Below, piece after piece: positions 2,153 to 58,259 of a stretch of 64,000 bases of DNA. The stretch is from a virus. Position 1 is the stretch's first letter; the number at the start of each line of letters is the position of its first letter. The translations under genes and the position numbers were made by a program. The notes under the pieces are model-generated. The model did not search any database, was not told the origin of the DNA, and worked only from the letters and a program-made list of their open reading frames with translations. The stretch lies in IMG/VR virus record IMGVR_UViG_3300045988_165036, positions 32,001-96,000 of that record, one strand, 5' to 3'.

Positions 2153-5100
2153 GTCAGACAGCGTAATATTTTCGGGATCTATATGGAAAATTACGACACA
2201 TACAAACAGGCAATTTCTGAAGCCGAAAAAGCCCAGGGAACCGCCGCTCGTAAAATGCAGGCGTATAATGAAAGTGTTGCGTATAGTATCAATCAGCTCT
2301 CTGCGGCATGGGAAGGATTTACGCAAAAACTTGAGGCAAGTCCGGCCGTCAAGGGTATTTATTGGATTTTGACGCAAGGAATAAAGAATCTTGATCACAT
2401 TTTGCAGTGGTTAATACCCATTATCGCAACATTTAATGCCGATAAAATCGTAAGTCTCGCTAAATTTTTGTTTCCTTTGGTGACGGCTATTCCGAAAGCG
2501 GTTGGAAATGGATTTAAAGATCGTCACGGTAATGAATTCTATGAAAATATGACTCAAAAGATGACCGCAGAAAATACCAATGCTATTGAAGAGTTAACCA
2601 ATGCGACAAAAGATAACACTGCGGCATTAAGAGGAAGAAAGTCGAAGAGCGGCGCTGGCGGAGTTGGTAAAGCAGATGAGGGGGCAACACCAAAGGGCCC
2701 CAAAACAAAACAAAAGCCATATCAAAAGTATACATCTGATGTAAGGTCTCGCATAGATAGTCTTAATTATCATATTTCTGAAGCGGAAAAACAAGGAAAT
2801 GTTTCGGACGTAGAAAAACTTAAGAAAATTAAGTCGGAAGAATTAAGAAAAATAGAAGGAAACAAACCGGAAATTATTTCTGCGTATAGAAAAGATACCA
2901 GGGATGCGACAGAATTAGCCCAAAAACAAATTAATGAAATTGACAAAAGAGTGCAAGATTCAAAGGCTAACGCCCTTATGAGAAAAGAAATTGCGGAAAA
3001 TGCCCATAAAAACGGGCAGGTACAATCGAAACTTAAAGAGAAGGACAGAAGGGCTGAAGCTTCGCAGATTCACGCGGCTGAAATGGAGGCTTCTGGAGAG
3101 CAGCAGAAGGAGCAGATATTTAAAGAAAGAAACGATAGGCTCAAAGAGATTAAAAAACGGACAAAAAAAGATTTACGAGAAGAAAATAAGAGATTAAAAC
3201 AACAGGAAGAGGAATATAATAGAGCCAATAGCACTGGGAGAGCTAAAACCAGAACAGACGTAAAAGAACTCGCCCCAGAAGAACGCGCAAATCTTGAGGC
3301 TCAAAAGAAACTGGAGCGTTCCGCTCGTCTAAAGACCGGTGTTGTTTCTGGCATTGGCGCCGGAGCCGTTCGCTTTGCAAACAAAGGATCAAGTTTCCTC
3401 GATGAGGCTATGGGTGTTTCTGGTGTCGAAGTTGACACCGGTGAAGCTCTTGCAATGGGCGTTGCTCAGGGTGCTCTAACTGGAGTTGCGACTGCGTTTA
3501 TGGGACCTGCCGGAGCAGTTCTTGCCTCAATTCTTGGAGACGTTTTGTCTTCTTTCTGGAAAAAAATTGCTCACGCAGACGAAATTGATCGTAAACAGCG
3601 TGTCGAAGATGCCAAAAAACAACTCGAAGCAATTAAAGGGATCGAAAGTTCAGTTACTGGTTTGATTGATTTAAACAAAAAAAATCAAGCGCTGTGGGAT
3701 TCTGATGAATGGAAACAATTCAACGAACAGGTTGAAACAATCAATGAAGCTCTTGAAAAATCAGAGCTCGGAGATAGAATAATCAACCTCGGCAACAGTA
3801 CACAAACCCTTTCTGAATATTTCGAAGAAGCGGCAAGAACCGGAAATAAAGATATGCTTTCTCGCGTCGAAGCGGAGAGAATTCGTTTTGAGGCTGAAAA
3901 GACATACGCTGCAGGAGAACAGGATCGTTATACCCTCCAAAAAGAGATTAACGAGAATCAAAAGAAGCTCGCAAAGCTTGATAACGACGAGATATCGAAA
4001 AGGAAAGAACTTAACGTAGCAATCAAAGCTGCGAGGTCAGAAATTAAAGACTATTCCGAAGCCCTGAAGAGGGGTTATATGCAAGCGTCGTTCTACTCTT
4101 CTGGCGTTGGAACAATGGAGTCTTATGACATTGGAAACGCAACGCTTGATAGAGTAATTATGCAAATCGCTCGAGAATGGGCAAAAGATAGTCCTGATAT
4201 TTTTGCTGGAAATCAGCTGACGAGCGATGCTCGTTTCGAAATTATTTCGTATCTGCGAGAACAGCCGGGCTATTCTTCTCTGTTTAAAAACGACACGAAG
4301 AATGTTGGAGATATGTTAACAGCAAGAGACGCAGTTGATGATTTGAGAAAATCTCTTAATATGTCTCAAAAACAATTGAAAGAGTTTGCCAATAGTAAAG
4401 ATCTTCTTAAAATTGGAAAGTCTTTCGGTTTAATTAAAGATGATATTATTGATATTAATCAATTGTCAGAAGCAGACAAATCTGCTGTTTATAAATTGAT
4501 CGATAAAATTAATCTTGTTGATGAAGACGGAATTACAACAATTGCACACGCAATGAATATGACCGTTGAAGAATTTGAAAGAGCAAATGCAGATGGAGCA
4601 TTTAACTGGCTAACAGCTGATGTTGCGATTGGTGGAATAGATAAGTTAAATGAAAAAATGCAGACATTTAACGATTTGTTATCTGCAGCATCCGAGGGTT
4701 CCCTTTTAACTTCTGAAAATCTAAACAAGATTGCAAATCAATTCCCAACATTGCTCCGTGGAGTTGACGAAGCTGGGAAATATACAAAAGATTTGAGCTC
4801 CGATAATATTCTTGATAATATAATCAGAATGATGACAGACGAAGATTCCTTACGAGAAATTTATTCTGGACTATTTTCTGGAAGCGTAGCAAAAGATTCT
4901 GAAATCTGGAATAATTTTATGACCCTTGGAAAAGGAAGCGAAATTGCTAATTCCAATCTTTCTGAAGAGATTAAAGAGCGTATTAAAAAAGCAGGCTCTT
5001 ATTCTGATATCGTCGATATTTTTGCAATGGATAAGATGAAAGAATATAATGACGCGTTTAAAGAGTATGTTACAAGTATGTATCCAATAACTGATTTACT

Positions 5101-6694
5101 TGATGCACAAGCAAAGATTTTGGAGGAATACGGAAAATATACTCTAGAGACAGAGATTTCTAATCTTGAGTCGGTTCGAGATTCTCTTGACGATGTTAAT
5201 AAACAGCGCGAGAAGGAACTTGAACTGATTAAAGCAAAAGAAGCTCTTGAAAATGCATCAAAAGAAAAGAAGCGCATATATCGTGCTGGAGTCGGATTTG
5301 TCTATACGACAGATCAAGAAGCTGTTAAATCTGCGCAGGGAAAAGTTGACGAACTAGAAAGACAACGTGACAAAGACAATATTCAATATCAGATTGATTC
5401 GTTGCAACAGCAGAAAGAAATTCTTGAAAATATTGAAAACAACAAGCAATTAGAGTCTCTCGTTGATACCGCAGAAAGGATTCTCGGTAGCGATGGTTCG
5501 AATAATGGCATTGCCGGAATTATTACTGCCGTTAATTCAATAACTAGTGATGAATTTATAAATAAAATCAAAGAACAGGTTAAGACCGGGATTACTGAAT
5601 CAATTCAAAAAACAAACGACGAATCAAAAGAATCGGCTTACAAGAGCTATAAAGAGGCACAGTCTAGCTTAGAAGATTTTCGCAAAGAAGAATATGTGAC
5701 GCCAGAGGGAGAAAAAACAGGGTATGCAAAAGGAGATATTTTGAATAATCCAAGATCCCCATATTATTCTTCTGTTTATGACGAATATAAGTCTAAAATA
5801 AATAGCGTGAATAAATATGCTGAAAATTACAATAAGTATGTACAAGATAATTCTAAAAAAATCAGCAAAGAAAAGGCTGATGAGTCTAAGCAAAAATTCG
5901 GGTTTTTTGCTCCTGCATCGGGGTTAAAAAGAGTTATGGGAGCAAAGTCGGGAAACGTATTTGTATTCGGAATAAGCCCGAGCGTTAATCCAAATTGGGC
6001 AAGTAACGATCAATACACAGCAGGGAATTCTTCTAATATTTATATATCTAAACAAACTGATGATGGCGGTTTTGGTGGATTTGAACAATCTCCGTGGAAG
6101 GGGACGGCAGAAGAGGCAATAAATAAAGTAAAAGGACCCGCCCTAATTGTAAACAATAAAGGTGGAAAAGACTATTTAATTTATAAAGATGTTAATGGGG
6201 AAATCCATAATACTGTTGTTAGATTAAATAATGGAGACGAGTCTTTAGATGGGGAGCTGAGTTATGATGCATTTTTTAATGGGAAAGTTTTTAGTGGATC
6301 TAATGGCTTAAAGGCATTAAGAAAAATGGCTGATAATTATAATCCATTTGCTTCTGGTACTCTTTCAGCCCCTGGTGGTCGCTCCCTGATCAACGAAAAC
6401 GGTCTTGAATCCATTATTACTCCTTCTGGAACAATCACTTCTCTTCCTGCTAAATCTGGCATTGTTCCTGCCGATCTTACTCGTAACTTGTGGGCTCTTG
6501 GTGAGGTTGCCCCTAACCTTATTGCTCGTCTTGGTGGCAACAGTCTCCAGACCAACAATTCTAATTCTTCTACTGACAATTCGATCAATATTCAGAATCT
6601 TGATGCTACGTTTAATACGCAAAGCGATTTCGACGGACGTCGATTCTTAACAGATCTTCGTAATCAGGTTATCTTGACTGCAAATAATCATTAA
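2153..6694 (+). CDS. tail tape measure protein, exon 3
   Basis: The frame upstream of ATG 2183 reads VRQRNIFGIY-MENYDTYKQAI..., continuing the tape measure core. A long coiled-coil K/E-rich body follows, and the C-terminus (SGTLSAPGGRSLINENGLESIITPSG) is typical of tape measures. Confidence 0.85.
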   Translation, partial: VRQRNIFGIYMENYDTYKQAISEAEKAQGTAARKMQAYNESVAYSINQLSAAWEGFTQKLEASPAVKGIYWILTQGIKNLDHILQWLIPIIATFNADKIVSLAKFLFPLVTAIPKAVGNGFKDRHGNEFYENMTQKMTAENTNAIEELTNATKDNTAALRGRKSKSGAGGVGKADEGATPKGPKTKQKPYQKYTSDVRSRIDSLNYHISEAEKQGNVSDVEKLKKIKSEELRKIEGNKPEIISAYRKDTRDATELAQKQINEIDKRVQDSKANALMRKEIAENAHKNGQVQSKLKEKDRRAEASQIHAAEMEASGEQQKEQIFKERNDRLKEIKKRTKKDLREENKRLKQQEEEYNRANSTGRAKTRTDVKELAPEERANLEAQKKLERSARLKTGVVSGIGAGAVRFANKGSSFLDEAMGVSGVEVDTGEALAMGVAQGALTGVATAFMGPAGAVLASILGDVLSSFWKKIAHADEIDRKQRVEDAKKQLEAIKGIESSVTGLIDLNKKNQALWDSDEWKQFNEQVETINEALEKSELGDRIINLGNSTQTLSEYFEEAARTGNKDMLSRVEAERIRFEAEKTYAAGEQDRYTLQKEINENQKKLAKLDNDEISKRKELNVAIKAARSEIKDYSEALKRGYMQASFYSSGVGTMESYDIGNATLDRVIMQIAREWAKDSPDIFAGNQLTSDARFEIISYLREQPGYSSLFKNDTKNVGDMLTARDAVDDLRKSLNMSQKQLKEFANSKDLLKIGKSFGLIKDDIIDINQLSEADKSAVYKLIDKINLVDEDGITTIAHAMNMTVEEFERANADGAFNWLTADVAIGGIDKLNEKMQTFNDLLSAASEGSLLTSENLNKIANQFPTLLRGVDEAGKYTKDLSSDNILDNIIRMMTDEDSLREIYSGLFSGSVAKDSEIWNNFMTLGKGSEIANSNLSEEIKERIKKAGSYSDIVDIFAMDKMKEYNDAFKEYVTSMYPITDLLDAQAKILEEYGKYTLETEISNLESVRDSLDDVNKQREKELELIKAKEALENASKEKKRIYRAGVGFVYTTDQEAVKSAQGKVDELERQRDKDNIQYQIDSLQQQKEILENIENNKQLESLVDTAERILGSDGSNNGIAGIITAVNSITSDEFINKIKEQVKTGITESIQKTNDESKESAYKSYKEAQSSLEDFRKEEYVTPEGEKTGYAKGDILNNPRSPYYSSVYDEYKSKINSVNKYAENYNKYVQDNSKKISKEKADESKQKFGFFAPASGLKRVMGAKSGNVFVFGISPSVNPNWASNDQYTAGNSSNIYISKQTDDGGFGGFEQSPWKGTAEEAINKVKGPALIVNNKGGKDYLIYKDVNGEIHNTVVRLNNGDESLDGELSYDAFFNGKVFSGSNGLKALRKMADNYNPFASGTLSAPGGRSLINENGLESIITPSGTITSLPAKSGIVPADLTRNLWALGEVAPNLIARLGGNSLQTNNSNSSTDNSINIQNLDATFNTQSDFDGRRFLTDLRNQVILTANNH

Positions 6695-9563: not shown

Positions 9564-12500
9564 ATGGCAATTTATAAACCAACAGACTGCAGTCCGTTTA
9601 ACGGAACGTTTGATTTATCGTCAGACTTGCCAATAGTTTTTGAATGCAAGATTGATACTTCTAATAGTCCTGTTACGGGGTATTCAATTGAAATATATAA
9701 CAGCAACAATGAAATAATTTTCCCCGGTGCCAATAGAACAACAGGCCCAATTAAAAGCAATGTAACATATTTAACAGATTTAAAAGAATATGTTGCGACT
9801 AATTTTTCGTCGCTGCTACCGAATTTAAAAAACATCAACTCCGGATTAAATGGAAGTTACCTTGAAATTCCGTTTTATGTTAAAGAAATCGATGCCAAGG
9901 TTGATTCAACAGTTTCTAGAAATCAAATGTCGGAAAATTCAATTCCGAATCTGGTTGAAGGTCAGACATATACGTGGAAAATCACACTGTACCAAGAAGT
10001 AAGAAAGGGAGATAGTGTAAGCGCGACAACAGATGATTCTATTTTTCCGCCGAATGCTGAAAAATATTATGATATGGTAGTTACAAGTGGAACGATAATC
10101 GGGCCTAATGAAAAAAGAATTCAAACCGCGCTAATCGATAGCGATGATAAGGTTGTTGACAATTTAGTTTTAATTGATAAGTTTGTTCAACCAATTAAAA
10201 TTGACAGGTTGAGTGGTTATGATCCAAGTAATCCTGTAACAAGTTGGAGCGGAACGATTCCAAAATCCTTTACGATGACGCGTTCATTGATTTCGGGTTA
10301 TGATTCAACATATGGATATATCTATCCGTCAACGGCAGAAGACAACGCGCTTGCCGAAGGTCAAATTGCCGAAGAAACAACAAACGGTTTTCAAATTTTT
10401 AAAAATGGCAACAACCCCGCTAATTTAACGGCAACTGATATGGTTGAATTTGTTTATAATGAAAAAAAAACAAAGGGAGAAATGGTTTGGAAATCAAATG
10501 TTGCAAAACCAGAACTTTCGTATTGGGAGCAAACATATTATCAAACCGCAGATCCAAATGGAACATACTATCCGCTTTCTGGTGATTATTATTCATATCC
10601 AATCTCTTCTGAAGAAAGAATTATATTTAATAATATTCAAGAATCAAAAGTAGAATTTGATAAAAAATATTATGGATCCCCATATAATGGAGTTTTCAAA
10701 CCTGATTTTTCATCAAAAAAGATAGAATTAAAATTTGAAGATTTGGATGGTAAAAGAATTATACCTGCTGGGCTTTATTTAATTAAAAAAAATCCGAGCT
10801 TAACAACTCTTTCCTGTAATATTTCTTTTAGTTCTTTTTGTCCAGACATAAATATTCAAGACAATTATATATATTCCGATATATTTATTAAACCCGGAAG
10901 TATTAGTTATATTGAAAACGATGTCGGAACAATTGTTGCATATGAAGATGGAGAGTGGACAGATGAGAAATGTAGATATATATCAATATCTTCTGATATC
11001 AAAGAGCCATATTCATATGAACTTATTCGTTTTTATAACTGGTTAAAAAACAACATAGAATCAGACATATGTTATCAAATCAAAACACAGTGGTTAAGAA
11101 CGCCAGACGCGACGACATGGGGCGCTCTTTCTAATAAAGTTGTTTACTGCCGTCAAGATGGTAAGAACTACGAAGTAAACACCAAAACACAGGCGGGAGA
11201 AACAAATAATACTCCGTTTAAATTTGTCGCAGAAAAGCCAGTTAGAATTTTCAATACGGTATCAAAACAGTCAAACACAGTTACTTTTAGTGAAGATTCC
11301 GAAGGTTTGCCGGGAACATATTTTGGAAATGTGAATGAAAAAATTTCTTCGCTTACTTCTGTTGTTCTTGCCAATGGTGTAGACATTACGAAGAATTGTC
11401 TATATTCCGTCGGAGATGGTGAAATCGTTATCAAAACGGGTGGGAAAATCAACCCGGATAATATTGCTGTAACATATGTTCCATACGCGCAAAGAGATTA
11501 TGCCGGAGTAATTTTCTACAACAAACAAACGAAATCCAATTCAGATACTGGAATTATTTATATCAGGCCTTCTATCAACATTAATAAAAATATGATCTTT
11601 AAAGAAATAACAACAACAGCTAAGCCAACTTGGTTTAATATCAATTATTTTAACAAAGATTATAATTATATTACTTACATTGGAAATCAGGGATTCAATC
11701 CAGAAATTGACAAAACTCGTTATCAGATTAAAAGTTTTTATAAAGATAGTGACTATAATCCGTTTTCAATTTACAAAAACCCGAAGATCGTATCGACAAT
11801 TTCTGAAAATGTAATTGACTCGGATAGAGGCATCAACGCAATAACAACTCGTAATTTTACAGTTACTTCGACTTATAGTCAAGATAACTATATTCAGTGG
11901 AAGAGTTACCAATGGATTTTATATGATTCTGCTAAAAGAACTGTTCTCGCGAAGACAGACGAACAATATGGCGGAGAAATAACTGCGACATTTTACGGGC
12001 TTGAATCACAACAATATTATATTTTGTCTCTTATTTTACAGACAAATACTGGTAAAATTATTGAAATCGATTATGTCATTTATTCTAATTTTACAGAAAC
12101 GGCAGAACAGAGAGATTTGGTTGATGCCGAATTTGATTGCGACACACTTGCAATGGAGGCGAGTCTGAAGTTTCTTGATGTTGTTTTGGCTCCCGACGCA
12201 GACCAATATTTGTCTGGGGCCGCTATCCCGATTAAAAATACGGCATATTATTATGATTTAAAGTCTGGTTTTTATAAAAAGGAAAACCAGGCCGTTGCTT
12301 CTGTTGATAACGGCGTTTTAACAATAACCGGGCAAAATTCGCTTGATTTTAGCAAATCTTTTGAAAATTACGCAATTAATTCAAGCACAAGAACCGGGTC
12401 AATTCAAATAGACGCGGATGAAATTGTAGTTGAGGGTTCTTTTGATTTTTCCAAAGATTATAATGGAGATATCTTTTCGGTTTCTCGTGGCGAAGAAGGA

Positions 12501-13361
12501 ACTGGCACTATTAAAGTCTCTATTCCAGAAGCAATTAAATCGATAGATTCAGATGGATTTGTCACTCTTTCAGACGATATTAACAAAGTTCAGATTGGAC
12601 CAAACTCCTATCTTAGAATAATTGATAAAACTGGAATAGTGTCAAAGTCAAAAGAATGGCAAAATTCCAGCGAATTCCATAACACATCGATTTGGCAGGT
12701 TGGCGGAATTGTTCCGAACGGGGACAGAATTAATGTTGCTAATTTTAAATATGCGGAAGTGGATAATGGAGATGGGACATATAACAAAGACACATATTTA
12801 AATATCGCCGGTCCGTTTAACACAAATTCGGATGAGGCGATACGAAATCCGATGGCAAAAAACGAACAGCCTTTCTCTTTTTATGATAATAAAAATATTA
12901 CTATGAAATGTAAAGATGGAGACCAAATAGTTGCCTTTCAAATCAATCAACCCGATAAACTTATCTGGGTTGATAACACGCCGGAAGGAAGTCCGAAAGA
13001 TGTTGTTATCAACGCAAATGGATCAGTCGTTACATCACAGCCAAGATCTGTTTTGTCAAAAGTGGCTCTTATATGGGACGACAACGCTGTTTGGAAAGAC
13101 GGAACATATTTGGAAAACGGAACCGGTCTTTCTGCTAAAATCGGGGAAGTACGAGTCAACGGGAATGTTGTCGAGATTGACGCAATCTCTGGAATAGAAA
13201 ACCCAACATATACGAATACTGATCTTGTTAAACAAGAAAAAGTTCAGGCATCAATCAAAGAGAGAGAGAATCTTTTGAAAACCAATCTTTCATTCAGAAT
13301 CTTTATTAATACAAATAATTTTACAATAGATCAGTTGAGAAGTGTTTGTTATGTCAATTAA
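9564..13361 (+). CDS. large tail/baseplate structural protein (1265 aa)
   Basis: Long ORF with SD aaaggggg. Lies in the tail module downstream of the tape measure. No catalytic motif recognised. Confidence 0.6.
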   Translation: MAIYKPTDCSPFNGTFDLSSDLPIVFECKIDTSNSPVTGYSIEIYNSNNEIIFPGANRTTGPIKSNVTYLTDLKEYVATNFSSLLPNLKNINSGLNGSYLEIPFYVKEIDAKVDSTVSRNQMSENSIPNLVEGQTYTWKITLYQEVRKGDSVSATTDDSIFPPNAEKYYDMVVTSGTIIGPNEKRIQTALIDSDDKVVDNLVLIDKFVQPIKIDRLSGYDPSNPVTSWSGTIPKSFTMTRSLISGYDSTYGYIYPSTAEDNALAEGQIAEETTNGFQIFKNGNNPANLTATDMVEFVYNEKKTKGEMVWKSNVAKPELSYWEQTYYQTADPNGTYYPLSGDYYSYPISSEERIIFNNIQESKVEFDKKYYGSPYNGVFKPDFSSKKIELKFEDLDGKRIIPAGLYLIKKNPSLTTLSCNISFSSFCPDINIQDNYIYSDIFIKPGSISYIENDVGTIVAYEDGEWTDEKCRYISISSDIKEPYSYELIRFYNWLKNNIESDICYQIKTQWLRTPDATTWGALSNKVVYCRQDGKNYEVNTKTQAGETNNTPFKFVAEKPVRIFNTVSKQSNTVTFSEDSEGLPGTYFGNVNEKISSLTSVVLANGVDITKNCLYSVGDGEIVIKTGGKINPDNIAVTYVPYAQRDYAGVIFYNKQTKSNSDTGIIYIRPSININKNMIFKEITTTAKPTWFNINYFNKDYNYITYIGNQGFNPEIDKTRYQIKSFYKDSDYNPFSIYKNPKIVSTISENVIDSDRGINAITTRNFTVTSTYSQDNYIQWKSYQWILYDSAKRTVLAKTDEQYGGEITATFYGLESQQYYILSLILQTNTGKIIEIDYVIYSNFTETAEQRDLVDAEFDCDTLAMEASLKFLDVVLAPDADQYLSGAAIPIKNTAYYYDLKSGFYKKENQAVASVDNGVLTITGQNSLDFSKSFENYAINSSTRTGSIQIDADEIVVEGSFDFSKDYNGDIFSVSRGEEGTGTIKVSIPEAIKSIDSDGFVTLSDDINKVQIGPNSYLRIIDKTGIVSKSKEWQNSSEFHNTSIWQVGGIVPNGDRINVANFKYAEVDNGDGTYNKDTYLNIAGPFNTNSDEAIRNPMAKNEQPFSFYDNKNITMKCKDGDQIVAFQINQPDKLIWVDNTPEGSPKDVVINANGSVVTSQPRSVLSKVALIWDDNAVWKDGTYLENGTGLSAKIGEVRVNGNVVEIDAISGIENPTYTNTDLVKQEKVQASIKERENLLKTNLSFRIFINTNNFTIDQLRSVCYVN

Positions 13362-13393
13362 TTATCAAAATACAAAGAAAGGAGCTCCGAATT

Positions 13394-14563
13394 TTGAAAT
13401 TAAAATTTTCGATTGGACCTGGGGATTCGTTAAATCCCGGAGTTCTTAATTCAGTTAGTACACAATATTTAAGCTCAAATTTTTTTTATTTATCTTCGTC
13501 CGAAAACGGAATTGCTCCAAGGGCGCAGGACGGAGCTCCAGAAAAAATCAACAACGCGAACATTCAGCAAGTTCTTGACGAAAACCTTCGTTCTGTTATC
13601 GGTCTTTTTAATTTTGAAGATATTAAAAAGGGCGAAGAAATAGTTGCGACTGCGGCAGCGGAAGGAGTTTCTAACGCCGACCAGTCGTTGTACGCGGTTT
13701 CTGTTTACAAGAAAGAAATTTGGTATGATAGAGAGACTGGAAAATCAATGGAGGAACCCGTTTGGACCCCCGTCGTATTAAATGAATCCTCTAATATTAT
13801 TCGAGACTTCAATATTGGAAATAATCGTTATTATAAATATGTTTTTCGACTTGTTGAAAACAAGACCGACGGAGGACTCGAATACCAGTCTGGAATTATT
13901 GTTCCGATTAAAACAAGTTGGCAGGGGTGGTCAATTACAGAACTTCACGAAACAGACGATCCGAAAGTCTTTACAGCCGCCCCAAAAGATGTTTGGAAAT
14001 TTAAGTATAATATTTCCAACGGAGCACAAACACAGAATGTCGCTAAAACACAGCAGGACACGCTGTCCCGATACCCGATTTTCAGTCACGGTGTGAAAAA
14101 TGCAGTTGGCGGAAGCGTTACCTGTTTGCTTGGTCGTGAAATGATTAACGCAGATTACACCAATAAAGAGTGGGTTTATGAACAAGCCCCGAATACATCA
14201 GAACCGAATTTTATCTGGAGAGAAAATAACGGGCCGTTCGAAAATCTCGGCGGTTATCGAGAGCGTCTTGGAAGGGTTCAAAACTTTTGCGGAACAAACC
14301 CCGATTATCTTTCCGCTTCAGTTCTTGGTTTCCGCAATTTAACATCTAACGAAGCAGTCGATATGCTCGACAAGTGGCGCGATGTTTGTTATTCCGGAAA
14401 TCCGAAACTGTTAAAAGATCAAAAGGGTCAAACTTTTATTATTCAAATTACCGATCCGAGCAATACTACGAACGAGGCTTGGGAGAAGATGCCAGAAGAA
14501 ATTTCGTTTAGCTGGATTGAGATTGCCGACGCAAAATACTGTCGTATCATTCAGACAGAATAA
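13394..14563 (+). CDS. tail/baseplate structural protein
   Basis: ORF 13346-14563. TTG 13394 has SD ggag 9 nt upstream. Function is inferred from position only. Confidence 0.55.
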   Translation: MKLKFSIGPGDSLNPGVLNSVSTQYLSSNFFYLSSSENGIAPRAQDGAPEKINNANIQQVLDENLRSVIGLFNFEDIKKGEEIVATAAAEGVSNADQSLYAVSVYKKEIWYDRETGKSMEEPVWTPVVLNESSNIIRDFNIGNNRYYKYVFRLVENKTDGGLEYQSGIIVPIKTSWQGWSITELHETDDPKVFTAAPKDVWKFKYNISNGAQTQNVAKTQQDTLSRYPIFSHGVKNAVGGSVTCLLGREMINADYTNKEWVYEQAPNTSEPNFIWRENNGPFENLGGYRERLGRVQNFCGTNPDYLSASVLGFRNLTSNEAVDMLDKWRDVCYSGNPKLLKDQKGQTFIIQITDPSNTTNEAWEKMPEEISFSWIEIADAKYCRIIQTE

Positions 14564-14565
14564 CA

Positions 14566-14887
14566 GAAAGGACTAGTTGTTAAGTAGTCTGTTTTATAGA
14601 CAAAAGCACAGACAGGTGGACAAGTGTATTATTACATTTCTTGTCTGTACTTGCTTGACAACAGGTTTCAAGCTTTAGTGAATGCTGTTTTACGAAAGTA
14701 ATCCTGCATGATGAACTACGTTGGGGAAAAGGTTAAAAACGCATCTTCGGATGTACTCGTCAGTCTGAAGCTCTGCGAGTGCCAATCAAGAAACTGTGCT
14801 AGTGTCCTGCATAGATAACAGAGAAACACATATACCCTCCCCGACATTGGCAAGACGAAAATTACTCCGAAAGGAAGGCATCCAGAG
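14566..14887 (+). ncRNA. candidate IscB omegaRNA (locus 1)
   Basis: ~320-nt non-coding, hairpin-rich stretch immediately 5' of iscB on the same strand. It shares ACTACGTT (14715-14722) and GGATGTACTCgtCAGTCTGAaGCtCTGCG (14749-14781), at similar spacing, with the region upstream of the second IscB (37870-37877, 37902-37935). Confidence 0.7.
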
Positions 14888-16135
14888 ATGGAAAACAAAA
14901 TTGAATACTGCTTTGTGGTTGATAAAAACAATCGGCCATTGGCGCCGACGAAAGTTAATAAAGGCTGGTATCTGGTTAGAAAAGGCAGGGCAAAAATAAA
15001 ATCCAGATATCCTATGGTAATACAGTTGGAAAAGGAAGTGGAACCTGATGAAGATGATGAAAGCCATATGGTCTGCGGTATTGATGACGGTTCTATGCAT
15101 GTAGGGCTTGCCATTGTTCAGAAATGTCCTACCAAAAATAAAGTGGTTTTTAAAGGGACGATGGAACAACGCCGGGACGTAAAACATTTAATAGATATCA
15201 GACGTGGATATAGGCGTTATCACCGTTATCATAAAAGATACAGGCAGACAAGATTTAATAACCGTTCATCTTCTAAACGAAGCAACAGGTTGGCGCCAAG
15301 TATCAGACAGAAGAAAGATGCTGTTTTAAGGGTATTGTATCGGCTTAATAAGTGGTGCAACATCCAGGAATACTTCCTTGAAGATGTCTGCATGGATGTC
15401 CGTGCAATGACAGATGGTTACAAACCCTATAGTTGGCAGTATCAGAAATCTAACCGTTTGGATGAAAACCTTAGAAAAGCCGCTATTCTGAGAGATAATT
15501 ATAAATGTCAGGAATGTGGGAAATCCGGCTGTGTGTTAGAAGTACATCATATCAGGGCAAGAAAATATGGCGGAGCAGATACCATTGGGAATCTGATCAC
15601 GTTATGTGGAAAGTGTCATGATAAAACAAAAGGCAGAGAGCGGGATTTTGAAAACAGATATTTTGATATGATCAAATCCCAGCCGAAAAAATTTGATTAT
15701 GCTATGCATGTTATGCAGGGAAAAACCTATCTGAGAGAAAAGATTTCTGAATTAGGAATATTGCATCTTACAAATGGCGGGGATACTGCTAATAAACGCA
15801 TTAACTGGAATATAGAAAAGTCCCATAGTAATGATGCGATATGCATTACAGATAGTATTCCTGATACGTGTGATGTGAAAGAATGGATTATTAAGCCAAT
15901 GAGAAGGAAGTCGAAAGCTAAAACGGATAATGTGTTAGGAATTAAGCATAGGGATTTAGTTTCTTATACATATAAAAATGGAGAAACTCATACAGGATAC
16001 GTCACTGCTTTATATCCAGAACGAGTAGCTTTGAATTTTCAATCAAAAACCAAACATTGTAAAAAAGTAAATGCGCGAAAATGCAAATTGCTTTGGAGGT
16101 TTAATAATATTTATTGGTTAGAACAACGCGTATAA
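14888..16135 (+). CDS. iscB: IscB RNA-guided nuclease (OMEGA system)
   Basis: 415 aa. PLMP-like N-terminus ([24 protein letters not shown]), RuvC-I ([15 protein letters not shown]), Arg-rich bridge helix ([22 protein letters not shown]), RuvC-II (FLEDV), HNH ([22 protein letters not shown]), RuvC-III (HSNDAICI), and a C-terminal TID-like segment. Confidence 0.9.
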
Positions 16136-16185
16136 TTTTACATATTCGTCTATATAAGCATATTTTGAGAAAGGGGGGCGGCATT

Positions 16186-17445
16186 ATGCCACAGATTTCT
16201 AACCAAATCAAAATGGGATCTGGCGAAAATTATAAGTATATCATTGACGGGAAGAATGCCGCCGTCGGCGATATTAAAAAGTATTTAAAAATTTCAGAGA
16301 TTAAAAAGATTATTGGAAGAAAAACAATTTACCCTCGATTCCGTATTTTTGTTTTGAATCCGGACGAAACAGTGAATTATCAGCTTCCAAACGAAGACAT
16401 TTTGTCCGGTGGTTCGTATAGTGAAAATTATCAAAACGGTTCTCGCCGGACGCTGTCTTTTTCATTAAACAATCAAGAAGGAAAATATACTCCGTCGATC
16501 AATAATTTGTGGGTAGATACGAAAGTTCGACTCGATGTTGGGTTGGAAGTTCCGGACGAAAATCTAATTATTTGGTTTCATAAAGGCGTTTTTGTGATTA
16601 CTTCTGCCGATCCATCAAAATCGACAGAAACCAAAACGGTGCCTATAAGTTGTGCTGACAAGTTCGAAATTTTGAATGGAAAACGCGGAACGGTTGGAAC
16701 GACGGTCGAGATTCCTCCAGGTATGCCAATCAGAGATGTTATTCAAGACATTTTGTGGTATGACAGCGGGACAGGCGATGTTCTCGACCCGATTCCGTTC
16801 TTTTATCATCCCGCGTTTGAGGGAAAAGTAACGCCGATTACGATAACACTGTCCGCCGGGTCGAATTATGGGAATTTGATTATGCAGATTGCGGATGTTC
16901 TGTCTGCAGAGGTCTTTTATGACTCCTACGGACAGTTAAATTTCGTTCCGGTTATTGATGTGATTTCTGACGGAGACAAACCAAACCTTTATGATTATTC
17001 AATTGAACATCTGCAAAATGAAAACTTTTCAATTGATTTAAACTCTTTTGTCAACTGTGTTTATGTTGTAGGGGCAAATATCAATGGACATATTTGCACG
17101 GCAGTTAAAAAGAACGAAGATCCGACTTCTCCGATTTCGGTTGGAAGAATCGGGCTTCGTGTCGCTGATGTGATTAATGACTCCAACATTACGACAGACC
17201 AATTGGCGGAAGAACGGGCAGAGTATGAATTGCGGAAAAAGATCATATCGGAAAGCACATTAAGCAGTTCTGTTATGTTTAATCCGCTTTTAAGTGTTAA
17301 TAATATAGTAACATATACAGATGAGGAAGATTTCGATATGAAACGAGAAAGATTTTTAATCCAGAGCATTTCCTTTAACTTGGGATACGACGGACTAATG
17401 TCATTGAACGTTTCGAATGTAAATAATCTTTCGTTTGTATATTAA
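16186..17445 (+). CDS. tail/baseplate protein
   Basis: ATG 16186 with SD aaagggggg. 419-aa ORF between IscB and the fibre gene. Function from context only. Confidence 0.55.
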   Translation: MPQISNQIKMGSGENYKYIIDGKNAAVGDIKKYLKISEIKKIIGRKTIYPRFRIFVLNPDETVNYQLPNEDILSGGSYSENYQNGSRRTLSFSLNNQEGKYTPSINNLWVDTKVRLDVGLEVPDENLIIWFHKGVFVITSADPSKSTETKTVPISCADKFEILNGKRGTVGTTVEIPPGMPIRDVIQDILWYDSGTGDVLDPIPFFYHPAFEGKVTPITITLSAGSNYGNLIMQIADVLSAEVFYDSYGQLNFVPVIDVISDGDKPNLYDYSIEHLQNENFSIDLNSFVNCVYVVGANINGHICTAVKKNEDPTSPISVGRIGLRVADVINDSNITTDQLAEERAEYELRKKIISESTLSSSVMFNPLLSVNNIVTYTDEEDFDMKRERFLIQSISFNLGYDGLMSLNVSNVNNLSFVY

Positions 17446-17460
17446 TAGAAAGGAGATAGT

Positions 17461-19665
17461 ATGGCAGAATTTAATTCGAGTACAGAATCCGGTTGCATTG
17501 CGGGCAATCTTCCGTTAAAGGTTATGCGCGTCGCGATGGAAAATAAGGGACTTCTTGAAAAAGCAGGATCCCTTTATTGTGGAACCGGGAAAGTAAATCC
17601 TGTAATAATTGAAAATGAAAGATATGACGTTCCTGTCACAATTGCTGTCGAACCCCCAGAAGGCGGAGTAAAAAGCAACACAACTTATGGAATCCAATTT
17701 ATGCTTGACGGAAATGAAAAAGTAGCTGGCGCAATTATGCGGCCATCGGGTTCTGCAGGAGGCTCTATAGGACCTACCGGTCCGCAGGGTCCTAAAGGGG
17801 AGCCCGGTCCGCAGGGTCCTAAAGGGGACAAGGGCGATCCAGGATTTGTGCCGACGGGCGGAAAGGTGCAAATCACTCATGTAACCTATAATAGCGATAC
17901 TGGGGCTATTTTTACAGGGATGCTAATTATGCCCGGAACGCCTAACGCAATAAGTATACCTTTTACAACAAACGTCCCTATTATATCCGGCAATAATGTA
18001 ACAATTAACGTGAATGAATCGGGCAATGCCTTAGTCATAACGGCAGAAGGAGGAACGGGGACTGATGGCAAATGGAACGATCAGGCTTATCGACTTCTTA
18101 AAACGGTGTTAGAAAACATTGCCTACACAGATGATCATACAGGACAAAATGCGGCAGAAAGCTTAATTGCAATATTGACAGCAGGGTCTCAAATCAACAG
18201 AATCACAGCGACTCTTAAAGAAAAAACAAGATATATAGGAGATGCTTTAACAGAAAATGATTTTACTGTGACAGGCTATTACGACAATGGAGATTCTGAA
18301 GTAATTACAAGTGGGTATACAGTGTCTCCCCAGACTATCACAGTTCTCAGTTTTAATGCGACAATCACTTACAATTCTCTTAAAACAACTGTTCCTGTAA
18401 CTGCACAGGAAAATCTAGCTCAGTCGTGGGTAATTGATAGCTATACACCAACTAAAACAGTGCTTTATGTTGACGACGATATCAAGACAAGTGGTTATTT
18501 TACCCACACAGTGACCTTTAACAATGGAAAAACACAGACATTGACTAGTTGGGACAATATTTCTGAAATCAATCCTAAAGTGTTTACAGACACGTCAACA
18601 ACAGTAACAGCAAAAATAGCTTATGCAGGACTATTCACCACTCAGGACTATACCATAACAGGAATTAAAGCAAAGCCTGTTGCAACGACACTAGAGGCAA
18701 CTTATACAGGGTCAACCAATGTCGGAACAGAGGTAACAGCTAGTAACTGGACGTATAAAGTAAAAGACCAGTATGGAAATGTTATCGATCCGGGTGGAAC
18801 TCTAGTACAGTCGCCCAATTTTGTTACTTTAATTGAAGGTGATAACACAATAGGCTTAACTCTCATGTTTAGTGGTGGACAAGTTTCCACACAGAAGGTA
18901 ATTGTTGGAGTTGCGGGCGCTCCCACACTTACAGGCTTAACAGCGACCTATACGGGTGGCGCAGTAGCAGCCGGCACAACTTTAGACCAACTAAACGAAG
19001 TCGTCAAAGCAACATACTCTGATGGCTCTACATCAACAGCTCTAACCAAAGGCACTGATTATACACTGTCCGGCGCACTAACTCCCGGTCAAACAAACAC
19101 CATCACAGTAACTGGCAAGGGCACATACGCAGGCTTTACAACCACCTTCTCGGTAACAGTGGAAGCAGCATCAACCTCTGTTACATACGCAAAAATGTAC
19201 ATTTACCCAGTTGATTATGATACAAGTTTAGGTGCGATGCAAAGTCCACACATACAAACAAACAGAGCTAATTCGGCTGGATGGAATATTGTTGGAAGCG
19301 GAACTACTACATCTCCAGCTGGTTTGCATGGCAATACTGGAAATGTTACTTTCGATCAGGCACTAACAGCAACTCCAAAAACTATCAAGATTACAAGAGT
19401 ATCTACAGAAGACCAGCCCACAGCCGCTAATGCCGGATACGATGGTGTATGGACTCTCAATGCAGATGCTACAACAGCTGATGGTCATTGTTACATTCTA
19501 TCAAATCATACAAAGAAATCTCTTGCTGTTGCTGCTGGTGACATTGAATGGATACGTGATGGTAACAATTATGCAGGTATTTCTAAATTCGTAACAAACT
19601 CCGCAGCTGTTCAGTATTTTGGAAAAACATGTCCTCATGGTGTGTTGTTAGAGGTGGAATGCTGA
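17461..19665 (+). CDS. tail fibre with collagen-like G-X-Y tract and Ig-like repeats
   Basis: GPTGPQGPKGEPGPQGPKGDKGDPG, followed by several ~70-aa repeats of the bacterial Ig-like type (..DFTVTGYYDNGDSEVITSGYTVSP.., ..VKATYSDGSTSTALTKGTDYTLSG..). Confidence 0.75.
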   Translation: MAEFNSSTESGCIAGNLPLKVMRVAMENKGLLEKAGSLYCGTGKVNPVIIENERYDVPVTIAVEPPEGGVKSNTTYGIQFMLDGNEKVAGAIMRPSGSAGGSIGPTGPQGPKGEPGPQGPKGDKGDPGFVPTGGKVQITHVTYNSDTGAIFTGMLIMPGTPNAISIPFTTNVPIISGNNVTINVNESGNALVITAEGGTGTDGKWNDQAYRLLKTVLENIAYTDDHTGQNAAESLIAILTAGSQINRITATLKEKTRYIGDALTENDFTVTGYYDNGDSEVITSGYTVSPQTITVLSFNATITYNSLKTTVPVTAQENLAQSWVIDSYTPTKTVLYVDDDIKTSGYFTHTVTFNNGKTQTLTSWDNISEINPKVFTDTSTTVTAKIAYAGLFTTQDYTITGIKAKPVATTLEATYTGSTNVGTEVTASNWTYKVKDQYGNVIDPGGTLVQSPNFVTLIEGDNTIGLTLMFSGGQVSTQKVIVGVAGAPTLTGLTATYTGGAVAAGTTLDQLNEVVKATYSDGSTSTALTKGTDYTLSGALTPGQTNTITVTGKGTYAGFTTTFSVTVEAASTSVTYAKMYIYPVDYDTSLGAMQSPHIQTNRANSAGWNIVGSGTTTSPAGLHGNTGNVTFDQALTATPKTIKITRVSTEDQPTAANAGYDGVWTLNADATTADGHCYILSNHTKKSLAVAAGDIEWIRDGNNYAGISKFVTNSAAVQYFGKTCPHGVLLEVEC
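17777..17828 (+). repeat. 27-bp-period tandem direct repeat inside collagen tract
   Basis: ccggtccgcagggtcctaaagggga occurs at 17777-17801 and identically at 17804-17828. Confidence 0.9.
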
Positions 19666-37759: not shown

Positions 37760-38038
37760 AAAAAAATAATTTTATTTGGAGGATATTGTGGTCAACCGCC
37801 CAGTTTCCTAAATGAGATGTGGGCTTGAGTAATCGAGCCCACTGATTGATCAGACTAAGTGTTTCGAGCACTACGTTATCAAAGAATATATAGGCACCGT
37901 TGGATGTACTCTCCAGTCTGACGCACTGCGGTATGTGATTAAACAGTTCTGATGGGTAGGAACAGTGTTGCATACGAAAACCTTTGAATAACATTGTCGT
38001 GGAGTAACTACTCTAACATACAGGAGGTTATAGAAACA
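37760..38038 (+). ncRNA. candidate IscB omegaRNA (locus 2)
   Basis: ~280-nt non-coding stretch 5' of the second iscB. Shares ACTACGTT (37870-37877) and GGATGTACTCtcCAGTCTGAcGCaCTGCG (37902-37930) with locus 1. Hairpin gtgggcttgagtaatcgagcccac. Confidence 0.65.
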
Positions 38039-39286
38039 TTGGTGTATGTGTTAAACAAACAAAGTAATCCCTTGATGCCTTGTAAAGAAGCAAAAGCAAG
38101 AAAATTGCTAAAACAAAATAAAGCTATTATAGTAAAATATGAGCCATTTACAATTCAATTGACTTTTGAGTGTGAAAATCAAACGCAAGAAATTTCTCTC
38201 GGAGTTGATGCTGGAAGTAAACACATTGGCATTTCTGCAACAACAGAGAAACAAGTTTTGTATGAAGCAGACGTTGAATTAAGAAACGATATCGTAGATA
38301 AACTCTCTTCTCGTAGAGAAGCAAGAAGAACGAGAAGAAACAGATTGAGATATCGTCCCACAAGATTCAACAATCGAGTTCATTCAAAACACAAAGGTTG
38401 GCTTGCTCCAAGCATCGAGCAGAAAATCAATTCGCATATTCAGGCAATCAAAAGACTTCATCAAATTCTTCCGATTTCAAAAATTATTGTGGAAACGGCG
38501 CAGTTTGATATTCAAAAAATTCAGAATCCAGATATTGAAGGAGAACAATATCAACAAGGTGATCAAATGGGGTTTTGGAATGTACGTGAATATGTGCTTT
38601 TCAGAGATGATCACAAGTGTCAGTATTGTAAAGGAAAATCTAAAGACAATCGATTAAATGTTCATCATATTGAGGGTCGTAAGACGGGCGGAAACGCTCC
38701 GAATAATTTAATTACGTTGTGCGAAACCTGCCATAATGATTATCATCAAGGGAAAATTCAGCTAAATATTAAGCGCGGAAAGAGCTTTCGAGATGCGACA
38801 TTTATGGGCATTATGAGAAAGACATTGTTGTTGAGATTAAGGGAAATATATCCGAATGTTCAAGAAACTTTTGGTTATATTACGAAGAACACCAGAATTG
38901 AAAATAGTCTTCCGAAAGAACATTATATAGACGCAAGATGTATTAGTGGAAATCCTTTAGCAAAACCGTTAGGATATTATCTTTATTAAAAATGTGTTAG
39001 AAGACAAAATCGTAAAATGACGAAAGATAATTTTATCAGAGGTGGAGTTAAAAAAAGTAATCAGTTAGTTGGCGATGTCTTCGGATTTGGGTTATTTGAT
39101 ACGGTTGAATATCAAAAGAAGAAGTATTTTGTGTTTGGTAAACGAAAATCTGGATTTCTGGACATTAGAACACTTGATGGAGAAAAAGCTAACAACGGCT
39201 CTATAAGCTACAAAAAACTAAAATTAATTCAAAAGAATAATAATATATTAACAGAAAGGAGTTTGTCAATTCCTACGCAACCATAA
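38039..39286 (+). CDS. iscB: IscB RNA-guided nuclease with one in-frame TAA (38987-38989)
   Basis: PLMP (QSNPLMPCKEAKARKLL), RuvC-I (GVDAGSKHIGISA), bridge helix (RREARRTRRNRLRYRPTRFNNR), RuvC-II (IIVETAQ), HNH (CQYCKG..VHHIEG..NLITLCETCHND), RuvC-III (HYIDARCI). After ..GYYLY-TAA the same frame continues KCVRRQNRKMTKD... (TID-like) to 39286. Confidence 0.85.
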
Positions 39287-39488: not shown

Positions 39489-39515
39489 AAAACCTCTTGA
39501 CAAACAGGAGGTTTT
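39489..39515 (+). terminator. terminator-like hairpin whose loop carries the -35 box
   Basis: aaaacctc (39489-39496) pairs with gaggtttt (39508-39515). The loop contains TTGACA. Confidence 0.45.
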
Positions 39516-39525
39516 GCGCTATAAT
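39497..39525 (+). promoter_or_regulatory. sigma70/sigmaA-type promoter
   Basis: TTGACA 39497-39502, 17-bp spacer, TATAAT 39520-39525. Confidence 0.75.
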
Positions 39526-39613
39526 AATAGTAGAAATGAAAGATTGGCTTTATTTACAAAGGATTTTTGAAAAGGAGAGAAAAAAATGACTATTGTTGAC
39601 TTTTATAAGAAAG

Positions 39614-40801
39614 GTGAAAGCGATTATAAAAACAATTCGAGTAATGTTGCTTCCAAACAACAAACAGCAAACTAAATTATTTCAATATGCCAATACTGCT
39701 CGTTTTGCTTATAACTGGGCAATAGGAAGAGAACAAGAAAATTATAAGAATGGTGGAAAATTTATATCTGATGGAGACTTACGAAAAGAGTTTACACAAT
39801 TAAAGAAAACTTCTGAATATGCGTGGCTAAACAATGTTTCTAACAATGTAACAAAGCAAGCAATTAAAGATGCTTGTGAGGCGTACAAAAATTTCTTTAA
39901 GGGAATTACAAAGTCCCCACGATTTAAGAGTAAGAAATATTCAATGCCGAAATTCTACCAAGATAATGTAAGAATTCAGTTTACAGACACACATGTAAAG
40001 ATTGAGGGTTTTGCTACGTCTAAGAAAAAGAATAAGCAAAGACTTAACTGGATAAGACTTGCCGAACGCGGAAGAACACCTATTGGAAATACAAAGTATA
40101 TGAATCCACGCATTAAATATGATGGACTTAATTGGTATATCACAGTTGGAATTGAATACGAAAATTCTACCGCTCCTCCAACCAACGAAGGTGTTGGAAT
40201 CGATTTAGGCATTAAAGATTTGGCAATATGTTCTGACAAGAACAAGTATCAGAATATAAACAAAACCCAAAGAGTTAAGAAGTTAGAAAAAAGAAAGCGC
40301 AGGCTACAACGTTCCATATCAAGAAAATATGAGAATAATAAGAAAGGAGAGCGTTACTGCAAAACAAGCAATATTATAAAAAGTGAAAAAGAACTTTTAA
40401 AATTGAATCACAGACTAACGAATATTCGTCAGAACTACCTACATCAAACAACATCTGAAATTGTAAAACGAAAACCAAGTTTTATCTGTATGGAAGATTT
40501 GAATGTGAGTGGAATGATGAAGAATAAACATTTGTCTAAAGCAGTTCAGCAACAAGGGTTTTATGAATTTAGGAGACAGATTGAATATAAGTCTGAGTGG
40601 AATAACATTCCAGTAATTATAGCAGATAGATTCTTCCCGAGTTCTAAGTTATGTAGTTGTTGTGGAAATATCAAAAAGGATTTGAAACTTAGCGACCGCA
40701 TTTACAAGTGTGAATGTGGAAATATCATAGATAGAGATTATCAAGCAAGTCTAAATCTGAAAAGACATGGAGAAATGTTATTAGAACAATCTGCATTATA
40801 A
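39614..40801 (+). CDS. tnpB: TnpB RNA-guided nuclease (IS200/IS605 OrfB family)
   Basis: RuvC triad contexts GIDLGIKD / CMEDLN / IDRDYQASLN. Zn-ribbon CSCCG..CECG. N-terminus IRVMLLPNNKQQTKLFQ. GTG 39614 chosen as start (the longest ORF starts at TTG 39593). Confidence 0.9.
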   Translation: MKAIIKTIRVMLLPNNKQQTKLFQYANTARFAYNWAIGREQENYKNGGKFISDGDLRKEFTQLKKTSEYAWLNNVSNNVTKQAIKDACEAYKNFFKGITKSPRFKSKKYSMPKFYQDNVRIQFTDTHVKIEGFATSKKKNKQRLNWIRLAERGRTPIGNTKYMNPRIKYDGLNWYITVGIEYENSTAPPTNEGVGIDLGIKDLAICSDKNKYQNINKTQRVKKLEKRKRRLQRSISRKYENNKKGERYCKTSNIIKSEKELLKLNHRLTNIRQNYLHQTTSEIVKRKPSFICMEDLNVSGMMKNKHLSKAVQQQGFYEFRRQIEYKSEWNNIPVIIADRFFPSSKLCSCCGNIKKDLKLSDRIYKCECGNIIDRDYQASLNLKRHGEMLLEQSAL

Positions 40802-40975
40802 CACTTTCAAGTTAATGCAGATATGTACTGGCACGTTAGTCAGGAATTTACGCCTATAGAGTGTACAAGAACTTGTGAGTAGTATATCAGAAATGATTAC
40901 AAAAGCATATACGATGAAATAGGAATGAAACATAAAAGTTTATAACTTTTTATAAGTTTTCAGTAACGGAAGCCA
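40700..40975 (+). ncRNA. candidate TnpB omegaRNA/reRNA (locus 1); boundaries approximate
   Basis: By the known architecture, the omegaRNA overlaps the tnpB 3' end and the right end of the element. Perfect 10-bp hairpin atctgcatta/taatgcagat spans the stop codon. A ~175-nt non-coding tail runs up to the primase start. Confidence 0.45.
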
Positions 40976-56978: not shown

Positions 56979-57043
56979 ATGAATTGCGCTTAGAATGTTA
57001 TAAATTAAACAATATATTAAAAATCAAAAAGGAGGTGAAGGGC

Positions 57044-58159: not shown

Positions 58160-58259
58160 TACAAACAACCGTTGGGACAACGGGGATAGCTTGGTAAATA
58201 TTTCGACAGTGGTCGGAAATTCCCAAGAATCTCACGACTAAAGTCGCGAGAGGTTCAAC
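58050..58259 (+). ncRNA. candidate TnpB omegaRNA/reRNA (locus 2); 5' boundary approximate
   Basis: Overlaps the tnpB 3' end. Hairpins ccgttgggacaacgg and ctcacgac-taaa-gtcgcgag (58231-58250), ending in gaggttcaac (58250-58259), a plausible scaffold terminus. Confidence 0.5.

Follow-up and report, generated by a model that had tools for sequence, protein, structure and literature searches.

An IscB-omegaRNA element inside a phage tail operon and its probable RNA-guided homing between co-infecting gut phages

How does a nuclease gene without a transposase of its own come to sit inside the late operon of a phage? The question is raised by a locus in a 64,000-nt stretch of viral DNA (positions 32,001 to 96,000 of the IMG/VR record IMGVR_UViG_3300045988_165036), where an iscB gene, preceded by its putative guide-bearing RNA (omegaRNA), separates two tail genes. 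This whole stretch is called here the window, and all coordinates refer to it. Most natural iscB and tnpB genes have no adjoining transposase, and their persistence and spread are debated. A first-pass annotation, made from the letters of the sequence, had offered two readings of the locus, RNA-guided homing between co-infecting phages or a domesticated weapon. By comparing genomes that carry the element (filled) with relatives that do not (empty), we come to favour the former: the IscB-omegaRNA element is probably copied from phage to phage by recombination, led by its RNA and independently of the transposase TnpA.

The nuclease gene is intact. The iscB coding sequence (14888-16135; like all other features of the element and its flanks, on the plus strand) specifies 415 amino acids, in which Pfam recognizes an RRXRR domain (5.9e-46, residues 9-187) and an HNH domain (1.5e-11). 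Its set of RuvC and HNH motif residues is complete (D66, E165, H220/H221, N235, H313 and D316) and aligns with the motifs of OgeuIscB, GID of RuvC-I, LE of RuvC-II, HH...N of the HNH domain and H..D of RuvC-III. The catalytic roles of these residues are assigned after those of OgeuIscB. Among solved structures, the best match is chain 9k2z_A, HfmIscB (E = 2e-249, about 87% identity), which aligns end to end over residues 4-414; further-removed IscB structures come after it, OgeuIscB among them. The deposited HfmIscB chain reads EVAHI where the window protein reads EVHHI, which looks like an engineered mutation of the HNH domain. The first-pass annotation had credited this reading frame with all the hallmarks of IscB. 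Comparison with IscB profiles and structures upholds the claim for domains and catalytic residues, but the N-terminal motif is PLAP and not PLMP. Purifying selection is strong over the whole protein (dN/dS of 0.03-0.15 against family members), and the frame is intact in 72 of 75 copies of the element. Close relatives number 74 on IMG/VR viral contigs (66-94% amino acid identity). Since a search of 185,579 species-representative genomes returned only 8, all on contigs of metagenome-assembled genomes of Firmicutes (Bacillota), the clade is mostly phage-borne. The exact window protein is present in the same context on at least 24 gut-metagenome contigs, including two of 134,160 bp that are probably the full phage genome. 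By its sequence, the element is a member of the IscB class of OMEGA RNA-guided nucleases, and its ribonucleoprotein would be expected to cleave DNA.

The RNA partner was sought upstream of the gene. A structured, omegaRNA-like region of about 320 nt had been described as beginning 2 nt after the upstream stop codon. The non-coding stretch is real (14564-14887, about 316 nt of it omegaRNA), although the conserved element begins at 14572, 8 nt past the TAA at 14561-14563. When 14566-14887 was examined with covariance models, Rfam HEARO (RF02033, the IscB omegaRNA) matched at 14619-14865 with E = 8.5e-5, its 34.4 bits falling under the gathering score of 83, and its alignment missed the first stem, P1 (14577-14585 with 14653-14661). 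Because this match is sub-threshold and misaligned at P1, we used a family alignment and counted covariation. In this alignment (A1; 33 non-redundant, diverse regions upstream of iscB homologues, folded by RNAalifold), 68 pairs are predicted, 41 of them with compensatory double changes, and 97.7% of the cells keep standard pairing. The controls were clean: shuffled alignments gave 17.2+-2.4 covarying pairs, with none of 500 attaining 41, and slid partners gave 9-15. The omegaRNA scaffold (14572-14892) starts at the first conserved nucleotide, where A14572-C-U pairs with a GGU beyond P1, and its last hairpin (UCCAGAGAUGGA, 14881-14892) encloses the iscB ATG. Covariation thus confirms the upstream region as an omegaRNA, a divergent member of the HEARO class. 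The window contains a second, strong HEARO omegaRNA at 37791-38011 (128.6 bits); its core (37869-37930) is matched by an nhmmer profile built from A1 (E = 3e-7), and the two RNAs are therefore homologous.

Alignment to relatives without the insert defined both the empty site and the ends of the element. Seven related phage contigs lack it, five from IMG/VR (L001-L005) and two from metagenomes (L141 and L164). In the former five the flanking genes are adjacent, with position 14571 joined directly to about 16168-16174, so that insertion between tail genes, as first proposed, holds. Homology among the 75 copies spans from about 14567-14572 to 16160-16177. The element in the window therefore measures 1,603 bp (14572-16174, with a GG/AGG ambiguity of 2-3 nt) and comprises only the omegaRNA and iscB. 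Its left flank consists of the last codons, TAA and spacer of a tail-module gene (405-aa open reading frame, ORF, 13346-14563), which has no Pfam or PHROG match. Its right end (16136-16174; homology of the copies ends at 16160-16177) finishes in AGAAAGG (16168-16174), and this restores the 5' half of the Shine-Dalgarno (SD) sequence of the downstream gene. The right flank (16175-17445) holds the rest of that SD sequence and, from an ATG at 16186, the gene of a tail protein (DUF5048; 16186-17445, phrog_1887, 1.7e-41). A tape measure gene (2183-6694) and a tail fibre gene (17461-19665) belong to the same module. A megablast of 12500-18500 against GenBank phages returned no match.

At the window site, empty alleles read AAAGG^GGGCGGC (a caret marks the junction); the element sits within the SD sequence that serves the downstream tail gene and brings with it a replacement AAAGG. 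A sister site, represented by the L012 family with 16 empty and 9 filled genomes, reads ...GTAGTTAGG^AGAAGAAAATATG when empty and ...GTAGTTAGG^ACTAAT...TTTTATAAAGG^AGAAG... when filled, without target-site duplication. We had considered a duplication of 7-8 bp, since in L007 as in the window AGAAAGG stands at either end, and rejected it, as the empty sister site TTAGG^AG assigns the right-hand AAAGG to the element.

The 75 copies occupy about 33 different insertion sites in gut phages, with the junction consensus ..A(A)GG^ACUAAU ... AAA^GGAG. Of 31 distinct sites, 30 have the start codon of a co-directional frame (at least 40 codons) within 9-19 nt after the SD-like motif, and 19 have a co-directional ORF that ends no more than 46 nt upstream of the element. 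A short conserved motif at the insertion, drawn from the consensus of 31 junctions, and the absence of target-site duplication, seen at the sister site, are ISC-type features. GG at most junctions recalls IS607, but the window has no Resolvase domain, and iscB is not known with a serine TnpA (Meers et al., PMC10055086). The first-pass annotation saw no accompanying transposase; in agreement, neither Y1_Tnp (PF01797) nor Resolvase has a match among the window's 90 ORFs of 95-420 aa, and the 1.6-kb element has no space for a further gene. Because no Y1 TnpA match was found among these ORFs, we regard the element as non-autonomous, and its features place it in the IS200/IS605 superfamily (ISC type). 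Of the two hairpins near its ends, the left one (14587-14601) belongs to the omegaRNA. The right one (16124-16148) lies over the iscB stop codon, is conserved in the family and is a candidate subterminal hairpin of a transposon end. Its predicted energy is -2.2 kcal/mol in the window against -8.5 in L007 and L012; it is weak in each of the five copies known from the tail-gene site and strong at other sites, and the weakening also changes the penultimate residue of IscB (C to R). Its covariation is modest (3 of 10 pairs), too weak for us to accept it as a proven transposon end.

Such an architecture could belong to a plain IS200/IS605 passenger that moves only when a Y1 TnpA, encoded by the host or elsewhere in the phage, acts in trans to excise it and insert it beside a short motif, its IscB serving to restore the donor site once the element has left, as in the model of Meers et al. 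(PMC10055086), and not to invade phages. The lack of target-site duplication, the motif adjacent to the end (GGAG/CTCC), the hairpins near both ends and an omegaRNA at the element end, where Meers et al. find it in the transposon, all accord with this. So does the scarcity of tnpA, which in their survey adjoins about 1.5% of iscB genes and leaves about 98.5% without it, and the spread over about 33 different sites demands some transposition-like route. What such a passenger would have to explain is the distribution of copies within single sites.

At the window site the element and its flanks have different histories. The 20-mer directly left of the scaffold, CAGACAGAATAACAGAAAGG, is absent in exact form from IMG/VR; among metagenome contigs of the phage lineage we found it in five filled and two empty genomes (L141, L164). 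Over 2,960 nt upstream, empty L141 shares 98.7% identity with the window, and it shares 99.6% with filled L155. The junction of L141, ...CAGAAAGG^GGGCGGCATTATG, carries the exact 20-mer, and no difference occurs in the last 23 nt of the flank. L155, L169 and L181 carry elements of 99.8-99.9% identity, whereas the 1.1 kb upstream of them are only 83-88% identical; downstream, filled L169, L172 and L181 share 92-96% over 1.3 kb. Between the window and L155, the flanks are 99.1% identical and the elements 2.8% apart. The eight genomes at this site agree in each of the 23 nt that precede the junction; divergence sets in at position -24, and to the right of the junction the filled genomes other than the window share about 40-100 nt. 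From this discordance between element and flank we conclude that the element is the unit of transfer and has repeatedly reached one precise site. The empty L001-L003 have 2-3 mismatches in the presumed target, about as many as their overall divergence predicts. Empty alleles read GGGGG and the common filled allele GGAGG; the former are not products of precise excision from the latter.

The sister site repeats the pattern. Eight filled genomes carry elements that are 99.8-100% identical in flanks that are 77-83% (850 nt upstream) and 71-98% identical (2.8 kb downstream), and filled and empty genomes interleave (filled L092 and empty L101 are 98.3% identical, filled L095 and empty L104 97%). Upstream divergence between filled backgrounds is 0% up to 100 nt, 2-3% up to 400 nt and over 30% farther away. 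Presence/absence polymorphism, element-flank discordance and short co-conversion tracts, the marks of phage homing elements, are therefore found at both sites. Among the empty genomes of the sister site, variation is highest in the 25 nt adjoining the junction, and 9 of 16 have mismatches in the presumed target; these fit escape alleles, or equally an unconstrained spacer.

In this respect the passenger explanation fares poorly. A motif of 4-5 nt cannot account for near-identical elements at the same site in backgrounds 12-29% apart, and for this reason we do not attribute the site-specific arrival to a transposase. Moreover, the copies at the window site have spread despite their degraded right-end hairpin, no TnpA match exists in the 64-kb window, and empty GGGGG alleles were not left by precise excision from the common GGAGG. 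We consider movement as a mere passenger unlikely. Homing between co-infecting phages, as the first-pass annotation had suggested, gains good support, indirect and comparative in kind: near-identical elements in divergent backgrounds, and an empty genome, L141, with the exact 20-mer.

What could direct an element of this kind to one site? In the IscB elements studied by Meers et al. (PMC10055086), the guide lies outside the element end that adjoins the omegaRNA and the target-adjacent motif (TAM) beside the other end. In our family, conservation across the 75 copies ends exactly at the first scaffold nucleotide; left of ACUA(A/G)UUGUUAAG the sequences of the copies are unrelated to each other. 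The presumed guide and target segment would thus be the flanking DNA directly 5' of the omegaRNA scaffold (14552-14571, CAGACAGAATAACAGAAAGG). A guide of 16 nt would likely correspond to 14556-14571, or to 14554-14569 if the GG counts as element, and would cover the end of the upstream gene, its TAA and the spacer. This moves it from where it was first placed, at the omegaRNA 5' end within 14566-14887, to the 3' end of the gene that flanks the element upstream. As candidate TAM, the 31 junctions and the empty sites suggest the SD core (GG^AG/GGGG). After the target, empty genomes read GGGCGG at the window site and AGAAGA at the sister site, while a filled genome continues with the scaffold, ACUAGU. 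The filled genome would consequently spare itself, as the scaffold and not the SD core follows its copy of the target. An element-borne promoter for the guide is ruled out by the differing flanks; the single promoter-like match upstream of the omegaRNA (sigma-70-like, 9/12, 14523-14550) is at chance level (14 sites against 9.6+-3.3 expected). No terminator is predicted inside the element on the plus strand.

The same segment bears on the second reading of the first-pass annotation, a domesticated device for exclusion, in which the ribonucleoprotein would mainly destroy the genomes of competitors that bear the target, or host DNA, to the advantage of the carrier phage and not for the copying of the element. 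An intact nuclease within a late operon and the existence of empty relatives with a perfect target speak for it. One may add that a 22-mer, CAGACAGAATAACAGAAAGGGG (14552-14573, the presumed target plus GG), recurs in the DNA of an abundant gut bacterium, a Firmicute, immediately upstream of the start of cca in the uppP-cca intergenic region. It is exact in L143 (6487-6508) and in 53 other metagenome contigs, which extend up to 386 kb and have flanks unrelated to the phage. We estimate that chance alone would place a 20-mer at about 0.3-2 loci in some 1e12 nt, a range with which the bacterial match agrees; L167 is one further singleton. The match upstream of cca is probably due to chance, and it would be very surprising if it were a real host target. 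Against a weapon, the guide would be whatever flank the element landed beside, and the element is mobile, polymorphic and scattered over about 33 sites, as expected of a selfish element and not of a fixed phage gene. Killing competitor phages and converting them are compatible with each other, but the domesticated weapon is superfluous to explain the data, and we regard it as improbable.

It could also be argued that IscB is here a decaying or nuclease-independent relic, for instance an RNA-guided repressor of the tail operon. TnpB derivatives of such a type (TldR) are known in phages, and a second IscB in the window has an in-frame stop. The complete set of catalytic residues, purifying selection over the entire protein, a presumed guide that differs at each insertion site and the recent lateral spread of the element contradict this explanation, to which we give very little credence.

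We therefore return to homing and propose the following route. A non-autonomous element of omegaRNA and iscB, which a human-gut phage of about 134 kb carries co-directionally within the SD sequence (AAAGG^GGG/AG) of one of its tail genes, would be transcribed by read-through of the late operon. The transcript would carry the last 16 nt or so of phage flank directly 5' of the scaffold, and these would act as guide. IscB-omegaRNA would then cut the matching sequence in a co-infecting relative without the insert, where the SD core (GG/AG-rich, the candidate TAM) and not the scaffold (ACUAG...) follows the target. Repair by recombination, templated by the genome with the insert, would then install a copy of the element, a TnpA-independent, "non-restorative" homing. 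The AAAGG at its end would keep the downstream tail gene translatable, which would make the insertion cheap for the phage. New sites may be colonised by TnpA in trans or by an illegitimate event, both being possible. What we infer from the comparison of genomes is that the guide is transcribed and processed, that the SD core serves as TAM, that IscB cleaves and that double-strand breaks drive the copying. It is tempting to extend this scheme to the whole lineage, as a phage-restricted IscB that has abandoned movement by transposase and drives itself between co-infecting phages by RNA-guided homing, with the SD core as TAM, operon junctions as harmless landing sites and each new flank resetting the guide; here we see the chances as evenly balanced.

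Several points weigh against homing. Ordinary recombination in a mosaic tail module could in principle produce discordance between element and flanks, and the assembly of metagenomes might wrongly connect strains at a repeat that they share. Empty alleles with a perfect target are still numerous in nature, so that any drive would be far from saturating. The boundary between guide and scaffold is ambiguous by 2-3 nt (GG/AGG), and one way of dividing them leaves a single TAM position that differs between self (GGAC) and target (GGAG/GGGG). Finally, the negative search for TnpA is confined to 64 kb of a phage genome of about 134 kb.

The molecule and its class are already known. Virus- and prophage-borne IscB/HEARO nucleases were reported by Goltsman et al., on more than 16% of HEARO-bearing contigs, the idea of homing is published, and a near-identical protein has a solved structure. 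HfmIscB (PDB 9k2z) is like the window protein in length and domain order, with about 87% amino acid identity, and belongs to the same clade. The OgeuIscB-omegaRNA complex (PDB 7utn, 7xht) shares with it the order RuvC, bridge helix, HNH, RuvC and TID, the catalytic motifs, and an omegaRNA 5' of the gene with P1 and a conserved core, OgeuIscB being a distant homologue (E of about 1e-21). Compared with Rfam HEARO, which scores 34 of the required 83 bits and misses P1, the scaffold in the window is about 320 nt long and its end hairpin lies over the start codon. The IscB-bearing IS605-family elements of Geobacillus stearothermophilus (Meers et al., PMC10055086) likewise have an omegaRNA at one end, a guide from the flank, a motif at the other end as TAM, no target-site duplication and mostly tnpA-less copies. 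They differ in being chromosomal, in their AT-rich TAM (TTCAT), in a demonstrated TnpA and in an IscB that restores the donor site, whereas the element described here has a phage carrier, an SD-core motif, no TnpA match in the window and a pattern of transfer between genomes.

Transposon "non-restorative homing" has been proposed in principle (review PMC13565253), and Mears et al. (PMC11870625) showed by experiment that TnpB can drive IS605 through populations of plasmids. The mechanism that we propose is the same, namely cutting of the empty site on a co-resident replicon and TnpA-independent copying of the element into it; the plasmid drive is an experimental case with TnpB, and ours a comparative one with IscB in phages. 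Free-standing homing endonuclease genes of T-even phages (SegF, SegB, Mob) are also intergenic and polymorphic, spread in co-infection and leave short co-conversion tracts. These enzymes recognize their target by protein and tell self by sequence polymorphism, while the element in the window would use an RNA guide and protect itself by its own insertion. IS607-type TnpB with RAGATH-18 right-end RNA (reRNA), whose TAM is AGGAG/GAGGG and which inserts at GG, shares the SD-like target motif and the GG at both junctions, but combines a TnpB nuclease with a serine recombinase, in contrast to an IscB with no resolvase match in the window. Our literature search found no report of an SD-embedded, polarity-neutral mode of insertion, nor of a population-genomic signature of single-site transfer between phages.

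The locus is a natural system for a direct test. It offers an intact nuclease with a solved close homologue, a presumed guide, and filled and empty phage genomes that are about 99% identical in the upstream flank and carry the exact 20-nt target, together with alleles that mismatch it and would be resistant. If RNA-guided homing between phages is true, OMEGA nucleases would have to be counted, beside protein homing endonucleases, among the forces behind mosaicism in phages, and this would account for the accumulation of four OMEGA nucleases in one phage genome. In practical respects, the SD-directed, polarity-neutral insertion offers a ready template for cargo that propagates itself through the genomes of phages.

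Apart from this element, the window holds other selfish elements, several of which are polymorphic among relatives, and this lineage of phages is a hotspot of selfish nucleases. The second IscB locus (37791-39286) is of a different clade, with 33% amino acid identity to the first. Its ORF, from 37994, meets an in-frame TAA at 38987-38989 and continues in the same frame through the C-terminal domain to 39286; it is likely a recent pseudogene or a truncated protein without TID. The element is absent from the relative L122 and present in L120 at 94% identity. In L120 an extra gene of about 820 nt (440-1280) precedes the second omegaRNA, with the flank ...GACAAAGTAAGT^GGTCAACC; in the window, the second scaffold abuts the SD sequence and spacer of the missing gene (37776-37790, ...GGAGGATATTGT^GGTCAACC). 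As this deletion ends exactly at the scaffold boundary, the presumed guide of the second omegaRNA would have changed.

Two tnpB genes complete the set of OMEGA nucleases. The first (402 aa, at the locus 39593-40925) has HTH_OrfB, OrfB_IS605 and Cas12f1-like TNB domains and is followed by a RAGATH-18 RNA (40853-40925, 69.4 bits), the reRNA class of IS607-type TnpB; no serine recombinase lies nearby, and the element is present in L122 and absent from L117-L120. The second (56984-58159, 391 aa; OrfB_IS605, 2.8e-32) is 31% identical to the first, and downstream of it there is no Rfam reRNA, only a sub-threshold Ref70 at 58163-58228.

Other kinds of mobile sequence are also present. A group I intron (326-594; RF00028, 84.6 bits) lies just past or within an ORF resembling a minor tail or tape measure protein (51-413, PhageMin_Tail); the tape measure frame resumes at 2183, and the intervening ORF (1229-2017) has no Pfam match. 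The gene of DNA polymerase III alpha (dnaE, 42950-47554) contains an intein at about 44100-45415 (Intein_splicing, PT-HINT), a segment of about 1.3 kb that is absent from L118 and L120. Between a primase-like gene and dnaE lies a 319-aa ORF with an HNH_3 domain (41988-42947), probably a free-standing homing endonuclease. Finally, a perfect sigma-70-type promoter (TTGACA-17-TATAAT, 39498-39527) stands inside a conserved block of about 60 nt upstream of the first tnpB. In the relatives L120 and L122 this block stands before other genes, and it looks like a portable phage promoter cassette and not a part of the TnpB element.

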